A stretch of DNA of 3,170 nucleotides from a virus (Duplodnaviria; Heunggongvirae; Uroviricota; Caudoviricetes): the IMG/VR virus record IMGVR_UViG_3300011531_000036, positions 1-3,170 of that record; one strand, given 5' to 3'. The translations under genes and the position numbers were made by a program. Below the pieces are notes generated by a model. The model was not told the DNA's origin. It did not search any database and saw only the letters and a list, made by a program, of their open reading frames with translations. This document shows, in pieces, positions 1 to 3,170 of this stretch. Position 1 is the first letter of the stretch; every line of letters starts with the position of its first letter.

Positions 1-192
1 TCAGGAGCATTTCTGATTAACGCCACCGTTAAGAATCCACCCTTCAACAGCTTCACGAAGGTATGATTTGGGGTGGGTTCTGACTGGCTTCGGAAATCCG
101 TGCCGTTTGGTATAGTTCCAGATTGTCTGACGTGATGAAACACCGAGCTTGTTCATCACTTCTTTCTCAGGAATCAGGCTGGTATCGGTCAT
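1..192 (-). CDS. AlpA/Xis-family small helix-turn-helix DNA-binding protein, probable prophage excisionase or regulator (63 aa)
   Basis: Complete ORF: ATG at 192-190, TGA at 3-1. GGAG (plus-strand ctcc at 200-203) lies 7 nt upstream of the ATG. The segment LIPEKEVMNKLGVSSRQTIWNYTKRHGFPKPVRT...W has the AlpA/Xis pattern: a short helix-turn-helix with the 'TIW/TIY ... FPKP' signature and a conserved Trp near the C-terminus. Its position at the distal end of a leftward operon fits xis. Family call is from recollection, not a search. Confidence 0.7.
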   Translation of the reverse strand: MTDTSLIPEKEVMNKLGVSSRQTIWNYTKRHGFPKPVRTHPKSYLREAVEGWILNGGVNQKCS

Positions 193-206
193 CTTAATTC
201 TCCAGG

Positions 207-230
207 CAAAAATAAACCGCCATATAGCGG
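207..230 (-). terminator. Weak hairpin plus U-tract immediately upstream of the AlpA/Xis-like gene (candidate intrinsic terminator or attenuator)
   Basis: Plus-strand ccgc (217-220) pairs with gcgg (227-230). On the minus-strand RNA this gives CCGCU-AUAU-GGCGG (4 GC pairs plus one U-G), followed by UUUAUUUUUG (216-207). The stem is short, so stability is marginal. Alternative reading: the loop sequence TATATG could be a -10 element for the downstream gene. Confidence 0.3.
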
Positions 231-353
231 CTCTATCAGATATGAACAGGCCTCATCGAGTGTGAGGCTGGTTAGTCATTGCGTAGCTCGCTGATTATTC
301 TGTAAGTCTCTGGTGCTTTGCTATCTCACGCAGTGCCTGATAGTCAATCTTGT

Positions 354-593
354 TCACTGGTTGCCTCCTTTGCGGATCTGCGCTGCGATGCACGAAAAAA
401 AAGACTCCCGCGTATGACTGTTAAGAGCTGGCGCGAACGCTGCGTTAAGAACGGCAGCATCACAGCCGTCATCGATATAGAGCGCAATTTTTTTCTCCAG
501 GCGCGCTTTGGCTTCCTGCAACTGCATACCCCGGCACGCACGCGGGATATAATCAGCAATTTGAGCGATAGCTTTTTCGTTCTGTTTAAACAT
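354..593 (-). CDS. Hypothetical small phage protein (79 aa)
   Basis: ATG at 593-591 with GAGGT 5 nt upstream (minus strand). The start overlaps the stop of the upstream 67-aa ORF in an ATGTTTAA arrangement (shared nt 586-593). Balanced amino-acid composition. No family recognised. Confidence 0.55.
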   Translation of the reverse strand: MFKQNEKAIAQIADYIPRACRGMQLQEAKARLEKKIALYIDDGCDAAVLNAAFAPALNSHTRESFFSCIAAQIRKGGNQ

Positions 594-789
594 GCTTCAC
601 CTCGATAGGCTTGATGGTGTCTAACAGCAGTCGGCGGCGCGTATTTTCTGCAAAGTGGCGGCGTCCAGTTTCTTTGTGGTAAAACTCGTTTTTGCCGACG
701 ACCCACATCCGTTCTGTTTGGTGCAATTTTTTTACCTGCGGTCCATCTTTGGTGATCACGGTACCGGTATGGGTTTTTACGATTGTCAT
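586..789 (-). CDS. Hypothetical small phage protein (67 aa)
   Basis: ATG at 789-787 with GAGG about 7 nt upstream. The ATG overlaps the TGA of the upstream PAPS-reductase-like ORF as ATGA (786-789). No family recognised. Confidence 0.55.
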   Translation of the reverse strand: MTIVKTHTGTVITKDGPQVKKLHQTERMWVVGKNEFYHKETGRRHFAENTRRRLLLDTIKPIEVKHV

Positions 790-1664
790 GCCACTACCTC
801 TTCGAATTTCAACTCCAATTGGTCACCCCAGATTTCACATGATTCGGAACACGAACCAGTATCAAACCGCTTGGCCAGCACCATCGCCTGATACAAACTT
901 CTGTAGTCGCTGTCGGCATACATTCTGGCAATCCTGTCAAGCGTCAGGTGACCACGGTACATAACGTCTTTACCTGTTCTGCGATGACCATCCCGGACGT
1001 GTTTGCCTGTAACCAGTTCATTAAAAACCCGCATCAGACCAGGTTCGTCTTTACATGCGATCCCCAGCTTTTGCGTTGACTTTTTGATGCAGAAAACACA
1101 GTTCCCGAGGTGCTCCGGGATTTGCAAATCAAAAGGTTGTTTACGCCACCACCGGATAACATCCGACTTATCAAAATCTGACAGCTCGGCAAGATACCGG
1201 ACGCCCGGTTTCGGTTTCAGCCTACGGTGTTCGTCCGCACGAATACCCAGCCATGTGATGTAATTCCCTCGCCCAAAATGGTCATCGCAATATTTCGTGA
1301 AAGGGGTGAGTTTTAGCCTGTCAGTACAGAATGCGCCGCCGATGTATGGCGTACCGTACTTTTTAACCATGTCCATAAACGGTTTAAGCACCGGCATTCG
1401 CGTCTGAATATCCTTTGGTTCCCATTCCGTATAACCATTTGGCTGCCCAAGCTCTGGATTTATATCGACCTGCAACACAGTTAGCGGTATGCCCCAGAAC
1501 TTCACAACCTCCCGAATAAAGCGGTATGTCAGCGGATGTTCGCAACCGGTATCCATAAAGATGTAGCAGACGTTATTGCCAGCCTTTCTTTGTTCTTCCA
1601 TCAGGTGAACAAGATATGCAGATGTTCTCCCGCCAGAAAAACTAACTACATGAGTTATGCACAT
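786..1664 (-). CDS. Phosphoadenosine-phosphosulfate (PAPS) reductase family / PP-loop ATP-pyrophosphatase-fold protein, phage-associated (292 aa)
   Basis: ORF of 292 aa. N-terminal VVSFSGGRTSAY resembles the PP-loop SGGxDS motif. The segment FMDTGCEHPLTYRFIREV aligns by eye with the conserved CysH block ILTDTGYLFPETYRFIDEL. There is a CxxC (NCVFCIKK) and a C-terminal Cys cluster (GSCSESCEIW). The ATG at 1664-1662 lies 4 nt upstream of the upstream gene's stop codon (TAA 1657-1655; ORFs share nt 1655-1664), so the weak SD is compensated by coupling. Confidence 0.85.
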   Translation of the reverse strand: MCITHVVSFSGGRTSAYLVHLMEEQRKAGNNVCYIFMDTGCEHPLTYRFIREVVKFWGIPLTVLQVDINPELGQPNGYTEWEPKDIQTRMPVLKPFMDMVKKYGTPYIGGAFCTDRLKLTPFTKYCDDHFGRGNYITWLGIRADEHRRLKPKPGVRYLAELSDFDKSDVIRWWRKQPFDLQIPEHLGNCVFCIKKSTQKLGIACKDEPGLMRVFNELVTGKHVRDGHRRTGKDVMYRGHLTLDRIARMYADSDYRSLYQAMVLAKRFDTGSCSESCEIWGDQLELKFEEVVA

Positions 1665-2191
1665 TTGCGTAATTCCGATAACTCGTTGAAGCGTTCCATA
1701 AACATCCCGTAGGCATGGCCCGGTGCCAGTGGAATCACTTTGAACATCTCTGTTGCCGGGATACCTTCCAATACAGGCCAGAAAGAGCCATCATCAAGTC
1801 CGAGATCGCGGCGTTCGGTTGCCAGCATGATGAGATCGGCATATTTCACTGGCGTGCTCATAACAGGAGGTAACCCGTATTTCTCACGGATTACGGCGTC
1901 TATTTTTTCTTCCATCCGTTTATAGTCAGGAAGAAGTCGTTTCAGTGGTGCGGGGATGTCATGGCAATACGCTTCTGTTGCATCATGCATTAACGCTTCA
2001 AAAGCAAATTCCTGCGGCACCAGCTGGCTGCAAAGCACCGCATGCTGGGCGACACTGTAGAAGTGTGAAAGATGTCCTGCAAAGCGACAGATATTTGAAA
2101 GGGAAACCGCGATATCGTTAATAACGATGTCGTCTTTATTTATCTTGTCATAATAAAAATGCTTCCCGGAAAAAGTTTTAATAAATGACAT
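1655..2191 (-). CDS. yfdR: HD-domain phosphohydrolase, YfbR/YfdR-family 5'-deoxynucleotidase (178 aa from the ATG at 2191)
   Basis: HD motifs are visible: RFAGH, then ALMHDATEAYCHDIPAPLK, matching the YfbR-type block ALxHDAxEAxxGDxPxPxK. The preferred start is the ATG at 2191-2189 with GGAG 6 nt upstream; the ORF track's 187-aa version starts at an in-frame GTG at 2218 with no obvious SD. The 178-aa length and prophage context match my recollection of E. coli CPS-53 YfdR; the symbol is assigned from memory, not a search. Confidence 0.85.
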   Translation of the reverse strand: MSFIKTFSGKHFYYDKINKDDIVINDIAVSLSNICRFAGHLSHFYSVAQHAVLCSQLVPQEFAFEALMHDATEAYCHDIPAPLKRLLPDYKRMEEKIDAVIREKYGLPPVMSTPVKYADLIMLATERRDLGLDDGSFWPVLEGIPATEMFKVIPLAPGHAYGMFMERFNELSELRKCA

Positions 2192-2315
2192 TTTGTTCTC
2201 CACGTATATGCGCTGCACCGCGCTGAATTCGGGTAAAAGGAAGCCCTCACCGTCCGGCGATTATTGAGTCAATTACATTTCCATAAATGCCCCCGTAGGG
2301 GCGGTTAGTTTCTCC

Positions 2316-2404
2316 ACAAAACAGAGAAGAACACCTGCGGTGGCAGCCGCCCGGATGGATTGGGTTATGAGCCCGTCGTCCGGTGATGCTCTTCTCTGTT
2401 TTGT
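2316..2404. repeat. Perfect 15-bp inverted repeat (acaaaacagagaaga at 2316-2330, tcttctctgttttgt at 2390-2404) enclosing a 59-nt GC-rich insert that can form two further hairpins
   Basis: Verified base by base. Inner helices: gcgg/ccgc at 2337-2340/2347-2350, and ccggatg/cgtccgg at 2351-2357/2377-2383 with a nested ggg/ccc at 2362-2364/2372-2374. Overall a three-way-junction-like fold of 89 nt. Lies in a region without credible coding potential. Confidence 0.8.
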
Positions 2405-2449
2405 AAAAAGGACGGTACCAGCCGGAAGCAAGGGTACAAGCTGGTACCG
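2403..2449 (-). terminator. Candidate rho-independent terminator on the minus strand (10-bp GC-rich stem plus U-tract)
   Basis: Perfect inverted repeat cggtaccagc (2413-2422) and gctggtaccg (2440-2449) with a 17-nt loop. On the minus-strand RNA the stem is followed after 3 nt by UUUUU (complement of 2409-2405). The loop is larger than typical, so it may instead be a structured RNA element or protein-binding palindrome. Confidence 0.4.
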
Positions 2450-2480
2450 CCAAGACTACACACAGCATAAAGTTGTGGTG

Positions 2481-2500
2481 CCGGGTGCCTCCCGGTGCCT
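2481..2500. repeat. Tandem decamer ccgggtgcct / cccggtgcct
   Basis: Two adjacent 10-nt units differing at one position. The second unit overlaps a 6-bp stem, gcctgg (2497-2502) pairing with ccaggc (2516-2521). Confidence 0.7.
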
Positions 2501-2590
2501 GGCGAAGGTTGCACACCAGGCGGGTGGGTATCCACAGAAGGTCGACTGTCAGCCTCAACCTTAACCCGCGTGCGCTGAGCCGCATTCACC

Positions 2591-2720
2591 ACAACGCTAA
2601 GGATTCTCTCTGGTTGAAAATACTTAGCTGTTATGTGCCTGCTTTTAGCCACATCAGGCGAGGTGGACCTAGTTATTCCCCAACAACAAGGATTCGGTTA
2701 ATCTGGTTATCCCCAACAAC
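2591..2720. promoter_or_regulatory. Degenerate direct repeats upstream of the 144-aa ORF (candidate operator/iteron-like sites)
   Basis: gttattccccaacaac (2672-2687) and gttatccccaacaac (2706-2720) are near-identical, 34 bp apart; the second ends 15 bp before the ATG at 2736. A looser module, acaac..aaggattc..ctgg, recurs at 2591-2613 and 2682-2705. No convincing sigma-70 -35/-10 pair could be placed by eye. Confidence 0.45.
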
Positions 2721-2735
2721 GTAAAAGGAAAAGAA

Positions 2736-3170
2736 ATGTCCGGTAATATCTATACGCTGTACAAATCCCACTGTGAAAATGTTGGAAAGTATCGGGGCAT
2801 TGAAATCAGTGGGGTAGTGTCATCAGTCGAAATAAGCAAAGTTGAATCAAGGGCAACATTACTTACTCTTTTGGACCTTGTTTTACATGAGCACCGGAAG
2901 AAATTCGGCACTCCCTATAATCAGTTGAATGGGAAAAAGGCTCTGGTTCACCTTATTCTGATGAAGCATCACTGGATGCCAAAACAGATTAATGAGATGA
3001 AATTTGATGAACTTCTTCTTTCAATTCAGGATGAACTCACACTTGATAAAATAAGCGTAACCGCCCAGAAATTTTTAGATTATCGAGACTGGAGATCACA
3101 AATTCATCACTTTGATGATTTTGACGAAAATGAATGGGATCCTAATTTGTCTGCACAATATCTAAAGTAA
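2736..3170 (+). CDS. Hypothetical orphan protein (144 aa), AT-rich moron-like gene with an acidic C-terminus
   Basis: Complete ORF: ATG 2736 to TAA 3168-3170, with AGGA 6 nt upstream (2726-2729). No competing ORF on either strand. About 38% GC by hand count (2741-3170), against about 58% in the adjacent non-coding region. C-terminal third is rich in D/E (HHFDDFDENEWDPNLS). No family recognised. Confidence 0.75.
   Translation: MSGNIYTLYKSHCENVGKYRGIEISGVVSSVEISKVESRATLLTLLDLVLHEHRKKFGTPYNQLNGKKALVHLILMKHHWMPKQINEMKFDELLLSIQDELTLDKISVTAQKFLDYRDWRSQIHHFDDFDENEWDPNLSAQYLK

Follow-up and report, generated by a model that had tools for sequence, protein, structure and literature searches.

We analysed a stretch of 3,170 nucleotides (nt) of viral DNA (Caudoviricetes; positions 1 to 3,170 of IMG/VR record IMGVR_UViG_3300011531_000036), referred to here as the window, and within it the non-coding gap that separates yfdR from a gene of the ECs1072 family. 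The window is the left arm of a lambdoid prophage of the e14/SfII/SfV/ST64B type, and over its full length it is 96.8% identical to the prophage adjoining sbcB in Escherichia coli XDL. In XDL the genes run int, a xis-like helix-turn-helix (HTH) gene, two small genes, a PAPS reductase gene, yfdR, a 'frameshifted hypothetical protein', the ECs1072-family gene on the other strand, an open reading frame (ORF) of 68 amino acids (aa), the cI-like ymfK and the cro-like ymfT. The gap in the window (2192–2735) lies between yfdR, which encodes an HD-domain 5'-deoxynucleotidase (1655–2191, minus strand), and the 144-aa ECs1072-family gene (2736–3170, plus strand). Read on the minus strand, it is composed of a series of RNA modules: a conserved block (M0), a hairpin (P0), a five-helix core (A), a linker, a predicted intrinsic terminator (T1) and a Y-shaped domain (B). 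We assign the whole gap to the leftward early operon as its leader, on the basis of the ORF list, of its context in E. coli XDL, e14, ST64B and mEp460, and of a pL promoter located upstream on the same strand, outside the window.

A preliminary description of this DNA had placed the gap at 2219–2735. The gap itself is real, but its left bound moves to 2192, because yfdR starts at the ATG at 2191, with GGAG ahead of it at 2202–2199, and not at the GTG at 2218 given by the mechanical ORF list. Every repeat reported earlier was found in the sequence: an inverted repeat at 2316–2340/2380–2404 (25 nt, 84% complementary, with a perfect core of 15 base pairs (bp)), a perfect 10-bp inverted repeat at 2413–2422/2440–2449, a tandem decamer at 2481–2500 and direct repeats at 2677–2687/2710–2720. 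A further perfect inverted repeat of 9 bp, at 2472–2480/2587–2595, had been missed. When 2219–2735 was shuffled 300 times with preservation of dinucleotides, a perfect arm of at least 15 bp never arose, and two arms of at least 10 bp were present in 0.3% of the shuffles. Folding of 2270–2640 gave –162.5 kcal/mol for the minus strand, compared with –123.5 ± 5.8 for shuffled sequences (z –6.8), and –147.4 kcal/mol for the plus strand (z –4.0), in agreement with the earlier view that the region is highly structured. The structures belong to the minus strand, which is sense to the HD-gene operon, and the gap is therefore taken to be a transcribed leader and not a divergent promoter region.

The GC content had been put at about 58%, which is true only locally, at 2401–2600; it is 52.6% over 2219–2735 and 56.2% over 2288–2666. 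The contrasting figure of about 38% for the 144-aa gene was right (37.7%). That gene (NCBIfam NF033230, E 1.7e-46; phrog_5286) is an inserted moron lying antisense in the leader, since relatives have other genes or nothing at that place. Separate acquisition, one of two options offered previously, thus holds with the low-GC gene as the insert and the RNA leader as the conserved element. The same non-coding segment is present in Shigella phages SfII, SfIV and SfV, in mEp460 and in Salmonella ST64B, with more distant copies in Cronobacter and Klebsiella phages, and it was matched in 3213 of 5426 complete E. coli genomes; its K-12 counterpart is the e14 'ymfH' ORF (89% identity). In the phages of E. 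coli, Shigella, Salmonella, Cronobacter, Klebsiella and other genera, the segment is always sense to the left operon, with the cI-like repressor on one side and the first early-left genes on the other. Many relatives carry yfdP and yfdQ between the segment and yfdR; the window has neither.

The name ymfH raises the possibility that the gap is a decayed protein gene, a frameshifted ymfH remnant whose hairpins are incidental. In K-12, the homologous part of e14 carries the RefSeq annotation 'protein YmfH'; in XDL and GDSC2239PM, PGAP labels the segment a 'frameshifted hypothetical protein'; and an ORF of 112 aa is open in the window. At the same time, that ORF overlaps others of 95, 83, 74 and 52 aa, with five of the six frames open simultaneously, and neither Pfam nor NCBIfam matches any of the four largest gap ORFs. 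On the sense strand, the longest open frame changes from frame 2 in the window to frame 1 in e14 and frame 0 in ST64B, while in the phiES15 type no frame reaches 50 aa; indels between the subtypes are not multiples of three, and substitutions keep base pairs. We rejected the decayed gene on these grounds and regard it as extremely improbable. An intact gene at homologous loci, with the gap as its frameshifted remnant, had been named beforehand as one outcome that would overturn an RNA reading; K-12 YmfH and the PGAP call give the appearance of one, which fails because the open frame varies by subtype and one subtype has none. The initial judgement that the region has no credible ORF was sound: the ORFs overlap, match no family and share no frame with relatives. 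The 'frameshifted' flags of PGAP are how a non-coding region appears to a protein-based annotator, and the K-12 'y-gene' ymfH, like the frameshifted 'hypothetical proteins' on this segment in RefSeq genomes such as XDL and GDSC2239PM, is probably a mis-called RNA.

An STnc100-class core, its linker and predicted terminator T1

A scan against Rfam matched the minus strand from 2625 to 2402 with the small RNA (sRNA) family STnc100 (RF02076), covering the model in full (1–206) with 43.4 bits and an E value of 2.1e-7, below the 47-bit gathering score of the family. Relatives scored lower still (GDSC2239PM 42.2, ST64B 35.1, P1 33.4), placing the whole subfamily under that score. The remaining Rfam matches (STnc310, DicF, ftsZ-DE, ar7 and others) were far under their thresholds and were treated as chance.

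The core, A, occupies 2472–2595 of the minus strand, as delimited by the RF02076 match, the consensus structure, pair counts, a reciprocal model search and covariation in the family. It begins with P1 (GUUGUGGUG/CACCACAAC), followed by AAU, P2, P3 (which encloses variable hairpins), P4 and P5, the last being an invariant hairpin CCGGGAGGCACCCGG at 2495–2481 that abuts the 3' strand of P1. This is the architecture of the STnc100 core, with its P1, AAU, P2, variable P3, P4 and invariant P5. The tandem decamer corresponds to the 3' strand of P4 together with the P5 hairpin. Directly 5' of the core, the minimum free energy fold contains the P0 hairpin (GCUAAG...CUUAGC; 2596–2628, minus strand), at the position of which ST64B has a different hairpin.

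We gathered the left-arm subfamily from viral contigs by a conserved 26-mer, and canonical STnc100 by a motif of its own. The consensus of 21 distinct subfamily cores has five helices, with 99% of cells paired and five pairs changed on both sides. A covariance model built from the left-arm subfamily alone (R1) recognised all 33 canonical STnc100 cores tested, at full length and with E values of at most 4e-8. In the resulting alignment, 18 of 27 pairs covary; because the R1-based alignment is fitted to the model, the relevant comparison for its 95.6% of paired cells is the control with slid partners, which gave 39–48%. By these sequence comparisons, core A is a divergent member of the STnc100/PasD class.

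STnc100 is itself already known. Its member EcOnc27, also called sRNA103 in enterohaemorrhagic E. coli, is Hfq-bound and lies 3' of stx2B (PMC4104026; PMC12711010), STnc100_4 has been confirmed by Northern blot (PMC5331693), and PasD and STnc100 have been reported to be related (bioRxiv 10.64898/2026.05.13.724894). The features that the window RNA has in common with STnc100 and the related PasD sRNAs are the five-helix core, the GGUGAAU after P1, the P5 hairpin, the 3' linker and intrinsic terminator, the occurrence in lambdoid prophages of enterobacteria and the reciprocal covariance-model matches. It differs from canonical STnc100 in falling short of the gathering score, in having GCGGCUCAGCGCACGC rather than CCCCCUGUGCGGAGGGG at P2, in being followed by domain B, and in being labelled by databases as a protein (YmfH) or a pseudogene. 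Moreover, canonical STnc100 has a private sigma-70 promoter, TTGACA/TTGAAA-17-TAAAT, which ends about 7 nt before P1 (its terminator lies about 35 nt past the core), and sits at the moron site downstream of Q/pR' and stx2B, whereas the window RNA lacks such a promoter and sits in the early-left (pL) leader. Our literature search found no paper describing an sRNA at ymfH, a left-arm STnc100 subfamily or a phage mimic of the initiator-tRNA anticodon. What appears to be new is the sub-threshold, promoter-less early-left subfamily annotated as protein, the recurrent succession of core A, T1 and B, and domain B itself. STnc100 is among the most abundant sRNA families and has no known function in the literature; it is now extended to a promoter-less subfamily in the pL leader and in the ban operon of phage P1, where a core of this class lies about 35 nt 5' of tciA.

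The e14 'ymfH' copy in K-12 (segment 3525–3804) is degenerate, its P5 having lost one base and changed another; Rfam gives no match to it at E ≤0.01, while R1 still scores it at 115 bits. In one viral contig (2325–3352) five canonical STnc100 cores are found within about 1 kb, and several others contain two copies about 470 nt apart. A census of the genes flanking canonical STnc100, made with a naive ORF caller, was too noisy to decide between action in cis and in trans.

Between the core and T1 is a single-stranded linker, UUUAUGCUGUGUGUAGUCUU (2452–2471, minus strand), which includes UGCUGUGUGUAGUC and is conserved across the window, ST64B, phiES15 and Kp4866 even as the adjacent helices change; it is a candidate seed or Hfq-binding stretch. 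T1 follows at 2405–2451 (minus strand), identified from the fold, the repeats and the Rfam alignment. It comprises a G+C-rich stem of 12 bp (GGCGGUACCAGC/GCUGGUACCGUC; eight G-C pairs), a 17-nt loop and the tract CUUUUU, and it aligns to the terminator of the RF02076 model (positions ~175–206), 3' of the core as in STnc100. ST64B and phiES15 have wholly different hairpin-plus-U-run terminators at this position. Such replacement by sequence-unrelated terminators is what would be expected if termination at this place is maintained by function.

Domain B, a Y-shaped tRNA-like RNA

Domain B (2315–2405, minus strand) is a three-way junction made of a 21-bp outer stem, arm 1 (2383–2351) and arm 2 (2350–2337), delimited by covariation and by a covariance model of the domain (R2). 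The 15-bp inverted repeat forms part of the outer stem, whose 5' strand begins in the U-tract of T1. Arm 1 reads CCGGA-CGAC-GGG-CUCAUAA-CCC-AAUCCA-UCCGG, and arm 2 is a variable hairpin. Across 19 diverse copies arm 2 ranges from 14 to about 45 nt and arm 1 is invariant; 94.4% of cells in their alignment are paired, compared with 35–49% for slid partners, and nine pairs covary. None of 500 shuffles reached the observed percentage paired, the both-side-changed pairs/cells or the covariation score. R2 scores the window at 101 bits on the minus strand versus 38 on the plus strand, and no Rfam family matches the domain. Structured RNA, either an sRNA or a leader, had been the first explanation offered for this region, and it is borne out by the full-length STnc100 match on the minus strand, the covariation in both RNA domains and the lack of a reading frame conserved among relatives.

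Motif scans returned 92 distinct viral copies of B and 23 hits in a collection of one genome per species. By record title, the latter came from 14 genera of Enterobacterales (Escherichia, Shigella, Citrobacter, Enterobacter, Klebsiella, Kosakonia, Leclercia, Mixta, Erwinia and others) and from one Chryseobacterium record. In 10 of these 23 genome hits an STnc100-class core is located just 5' of B, and A-T1-B is therefore a recurrent unit. Other phages have a different P1-framed domain before the same T1-B. This third type of domain, seen in an Stx2c phage (segment ~2870–2990) and in Salmonella phage F1055, keeps the P1 frame (GUUGUGGU...CCACAAC), the AAU and a P2 hairpin and has no P5; R1 did not detect it in either phage.

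The tip of arm 1, CGGGCUCAUAACCC (2362–2375, minus strand), consists of three G-C pairs closing a CUCAUAA loop and has exactly the sequence of the anticodon stem-loop in E. coli initiator tRNA-fMet. We confirmed the 77-mer used as the tRNA-fMet reference, which is annotated as tRNA-Met in 5426 of 5426 E. coli genomes, with a median of four per genome. The tip has the 7-nt loop, U33, purine 37 and G-C-rich stem of an anticodon stem-loop, with CAU as the anticodon, and three G-C pairs are the mark of initiator tRNA. The form GGG-NUCAUAN-(C/U)CC is present in 61 of 63 B elements, many of which were found through a motif that includes the tip, though not the P1-type copies or e14. The copy that clearly departs from this form is that of the defective e14, in which the anticodon-like loop is UUAAUAA and arm 2 is broken.

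B occurs in three settings: at the first terminator of the early-left operon in many prophages of Enterobacterales, as multiple copies within the P1 ban operon, and at the end of tRNA arrays downstream of Q. The relatives found by R2 in the last setting form the final unit of the array and have a 6-bp acceptor-like stem and an RCCA end. ARAGORN makes no call on these array-type relatives beside real tRNAs, and Rfam gives none either. In Klebsiella-type phages, a short form of B follows the 3' CCA of a tRNA-Arg or tRNA-Thr through GAUAAU (for example, at segment positions 1503–1582 and 297–363 in two phages). The P1 ban operon holds three B-like elements, one of them abutting the STnc100-class core. 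In the P1 segment (NC_005856 68577–71608), B-like and core elements map to 486–570, 1150–1249, 1427–1510 and 1504–1623, besides the annotated dicF-like region and tRNAs, and the annotated coding sequences plp and upl overlap two of the B-like elements in antisense orientation.

B thus resembles phage tRNAs and tRNA-like RNAs in the acceptor-like stem and RCCA of its array relatives, and tRNA-fMet in its 7-nt CAU loop on three G-C pairs. On the other hand, it has no D arm and no T-loop, does not form a cloverleaf and escapes tRNA finders, and in the window its stem is a 21-bp duplex without CCA. ARAGORN and the Rfam model RF00005 found no tRNA or transfer-messenger RNA in the window. VapC-type toxins cleave initiator tRNA in the anticodon region. 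As a tentative proposal, domain B could represent an undescribed class of phage RNA, Y-shaped, D-arm-less and tRNA-like, that mimics the anticodon arm of initiator tRNA-fMet, whether as a decoy for anticodon nucleases (the enteric VapC/MvpT) or as a ligand of methionyl-tRNA synthetase, initiation factor 3 or the 30S P site; the STnc100-class core, whose loops are just as invariant, might likewise bind a protein or the ribosome instead of acting as a base-pairing sRNA.

A plainer account would make B a mere relic of a phage tRNA gene left in the leader; at most, it would now be a long hairpin that helps RNase III processing or stabilises the mRNA, and the identity of the anticodon loop would have no function. 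The array-end relatives with their acceptor-like stem and RCCA agree with such an origin, as do the loss of the CCA end from the duplex in the window and the failure of both ARAGORN and the Rfam tRNA model to see B. A relic would not be expected to look as it does across copies, however: arm 1 is invariant in 61 of 63 of them, in many genera and in three contexts, whereas both the outer stem and arm 2 show covariation and the length of arm 2 differs, and the sole clearly decayed copy belongs to the defective e14 prophage of K-12. We consider the relic quite unlikely. Whatever B does, this widespread, covariation-supported domain is absent from Rfam and akin to units of phage tRNA arrays, and it reproduces the anticodon arm of initiator tRNA; if it acts as a mimic, it would represent a novel type of phage counter-measure or of translation-directed RNA.

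Probable transcription from pL and a proposed role of the leader

A promoter scan of 2100–2850 returned no promoter-like site, and hence no private sigma-70 promoter for the RNA; the only candidate found by eye, a poor CTGATG-N16-CATAAC, was discarded. The promoter stands beyond the window. In both XDL and e14, pL (TTGACA-17-ATAATG; TTGACAatgtacctttgagatacATAATG) comes right after the terminator of the cI-like gene; in XDL it lies within segment ~12330–12600 on the minus strand, about 400 nt past the right end of the window, with operator-like repeats of the TGTACC...GGTACA type that resemble those between cI and cro. With no promoter-like site in the leader, the minus-strand RNA would be made from pL. 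Consistent with this origin, the K-12 'YmfT iModulon' groups ymfH with intE, xisE and ymfJ (PMC12133099). Past pL, XDL has a hairpin, then a boxA-like GCTCTTTAACAA and then the 68-aa ORF. GCTCTTTAACAA equals the rrn boxA consensus.

T1 lies on the path from pL to yfdR, the PAPS reductase gene, xis and int. In the window, the genes along this path besides yfdR are a PAPS-reductase-family gene (786–1664, minus strand) and an AlpA/Xis-type HTH gene (1–192, minus strand), with two small ORFs also on the minus strand.

We consider it fairly probable that the gap serves the leftward early (pL-type) operon as a transcribed, non-coding leader, in which a stop at T1 yields an STnc100-class RNA and gates expression of yfdR through xis and int, while read-through carries domain B. 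Transcription starting at pL would cross the 68-aa ORF, run antisense through the ECs1072-family insert and enter the leader, where the RNA is predicted to fold into P0 and then the five-helix core A, followed by the linker and T1. Part of the transcripts would end at T1, giving an RNA of about 200 nt or more with a 3' half of the STnc100 type (structured core, U-rich linker, terminator), which would bind Hfq and act in trans by analogy with EcOnc27 and PasD. Unless read through, T1 would limit transcription into yfdR, the PAPS-reductase gene, xis and int, much as lambda tL1 does. Read-through transcripts would also form B, which is probably cut out as a separate RNA; RNase III is the obvious candidate, with the long duplex a plausible site like that of lambda sib. 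The sequence comparisons establish the strand, the homology, both RNA structures, the anatomy of the terminator, the position of pL and the lack of a conserved ORF and of a promoter inside the leader; the efficiency of termination, the control of read-through, the processing, the binding of Hfq and the trans functions of A and B are inferred from family members. The scheme would link the family RNA to terminator read-through and the lytic switch, a tractable setting for studying the role of the invariant core.

Several known phage systems resemble this arrangement in part. As with lambda tL1 and tI/sib, an intrinsic terminator early in the leftward operon, here the predicted T1, would have to be read through for xis and int, and, as in sib, the sequence past the terminator extends into a long duplex only in read-through transcripts. 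At the same time, there is no sequence relationship to tL1/sib and no N-like protein was identified here; moreover, sib is a plain hairpin downstream of int, whereas the duplex in the window encloses a conserved Y-shaped RNA and lies upstream of int. DicF of the Qin prophage and the dicF-like region of P1 are, as is proposed for the window RNA, small RNAs that mature from the transcript of a repressor-controlled phage operon and have no promoter of their own; in the P1 ban operon, moreover, the dicF-like region, the tRNAs, the B-like elements and the STnc100-class core follow one another. DicF itself differs in structure and size, and its Rfam model scores the window at 19 bits versus a gathering score of 48, a chance level. 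The put RNAs of HK022 are also structured RNAs in the leaders of terminator-bearing phage early operons, but each put is two adjacent stem-loops, in contrast to the closed five-helix junction and the Y of the window.

The order of elements in the leader can also be read in another way, in which the STnc100-class domain acts in cis, whether as a sensor for attenuation, as a riboswitch-like element or as an RNA for processive antitermination, with its fold or a bound factor setting the stop at T1 and the short RNA being a by-product. Promoter, conserved structured domain, intrinsic terminator and genes do follow one another in this order; in P1 and SJ46 the core lies about 35 nt 5' of the start codon of tciA with no terminator, like an element of a 5' untranslated region; the junctions and loops are invariant while the helices covary, as in RNAs that bind a ligand or protein; and some canonical copies, as well as PasD, are located 5' of co-oriented genes such as a sialate esterase gene. 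However, we found no conserved antiterminator pairing with T1, the sequence of which is wholly different in each subtype, and the downstream genes (yfdP/Q/R, kil-gam, tciA, esterase) are mutually unrelated, which argues against a metabolite riboswitch. Canonical members, moreover, accumulate as Hfq-bound RNAs with RIL-seq partners, and the HK022 putL/putR region shows no similarity: in HK022 21,000–32,600, a span taken without looking up the put coordinates, the best unfiltered scores with R1 and R2 were 14.1 and 15.6 bits, one of them inside IS903. A purely cis-acting leader is, in our view, unlikely.

Other observations weigh against the preferred reading of a T1-ended, trans-acting RNA in a gated leader. 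The window RNA and its whole subfamily remain below the Rfam gathering score, and the left-arm subfamily lacks the private promoter of canonical STnc100, so that it may not be an sRNA gene of the canonical kind. Among the small ORFs that separate pL from the leader no N-like antiterminator was identified, only HTH_17, ClpX zinc-finger and unknown PHROGs, and e14 has the same pL promoter without the boxA-like sequence. T1 has five U's and a 17-nt loop and is not listed by a simple terminator scan, which accepts loops of 3–8 nt only. A search for linker targets in the translation-initiation regions of 28 genes of the XDL locus gave a best value of –22.6 kcal/mol, which 36% of shuffled linkers equalled or beat. 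Finally, the invariance of GGUGAAU, of P5 and of arm 1 of B exceeds the needs of a base-pairing sRNA and hints at another mode of action.

Block M0, the right-hand part and minor features

At the 5' boundary of the structured modules is M0 (CCACCTCGCCTGATGTGGCTAAAAGCAGGCACATAACA; 2629–2666, minus strand), a block of 38 nt conserved across genera, which retains 92–97% identity in Cronobacter phiES15 and Klebsiella Kp4866-6 despite diverged flanks. M0 exists in two variants with coordinated changes, and it is near-identical in phages of different genera and with different repressors. Further to the right, the ECs1072-family gene is preceded by two direct repeats GTTAT(T)CCCCAACAAC at a distance of 33 nt (2674–2720, plus strand; 2674–2687 and 2707–2720), which may be DNA-level sites of that inserted gene.

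These elements bear on the idea that the repeats are protein-binding DNA sites of a divergent promoter/operator that controls yfdR on its left and the ECs1072-family gene on its right. The direct repeats do precede a plus-strand gene, the 2629–2720 block stands in EDL933 ahead of a different plus-strand gene, beside a truncated exonuclease gene, and M0 contains CCAC-N10-GTGG. On the other hand, the scan found no promoter-like site on either strand, the real pL is elsewhere, with operators matching the cI–cro region, and CCAC-N10-GTGG occurs once per locus in a block that is kept among phages with different repressors. Most of the region (2288–2628), moreover, shows covariation of the RNA type, G-U pairs and strand asymmetry. 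We hold this explanation to be very improbable for the region as a whole. A cluster of protein-binding sites, proposed in the preliminary description as the alternative to structured RNA, may apply to 2629–2735 only, where the direct repeats and the EDL933 block are found, and does not explain the structured core.

Two narrower assignments of M0 were also discarded. As a repressor operator it would have to be reconciled with its single CCAC-N10-GTGG per locus, its retention among phages with different repressors and the presence of the real operators (TGTACC...GGTACA) elsewhere. Variant 1 has a TGGC...GC spacing like that of sigma-54 promoters, counted from where the Rfam model starts, but an additional base in variant 2 disrupts this spacing. 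In Salmonella phage 118970_sal3 (segment ~2390–2440), an insert between M0 and the core contains GGTTCGATTCCAG, resembling a tRNA T-arm, and looks like another tRNA-like fragment in the same leader.

At the other end of the leader, a small G+C-rich hairpin, H3 (GCCCCUACGGGGGC; 2288–2303, minus strand), has its stem listed by the terminator/hairpin scan and lies 3' of the conserved GGAGAAAC (2315–2308). Relatives have other hairpins at the H3 position (GACCUUGCAGGGUC, GGCGGUGGCAGCCGCC), and the block 2302–2270 corresponds to their yfdQ–yfdR spacer. A mini-ORF, ATG GAA ATG TAA, is found at 2273–2284 of the minus strand, where relatives begin yfdP. On the far side of the immunity region, C4 antisense RNA (80 bits) and isrK (60–64 bits) adjoin in ST64B (segment 409–597) and in the Stx2c phage (414–602).

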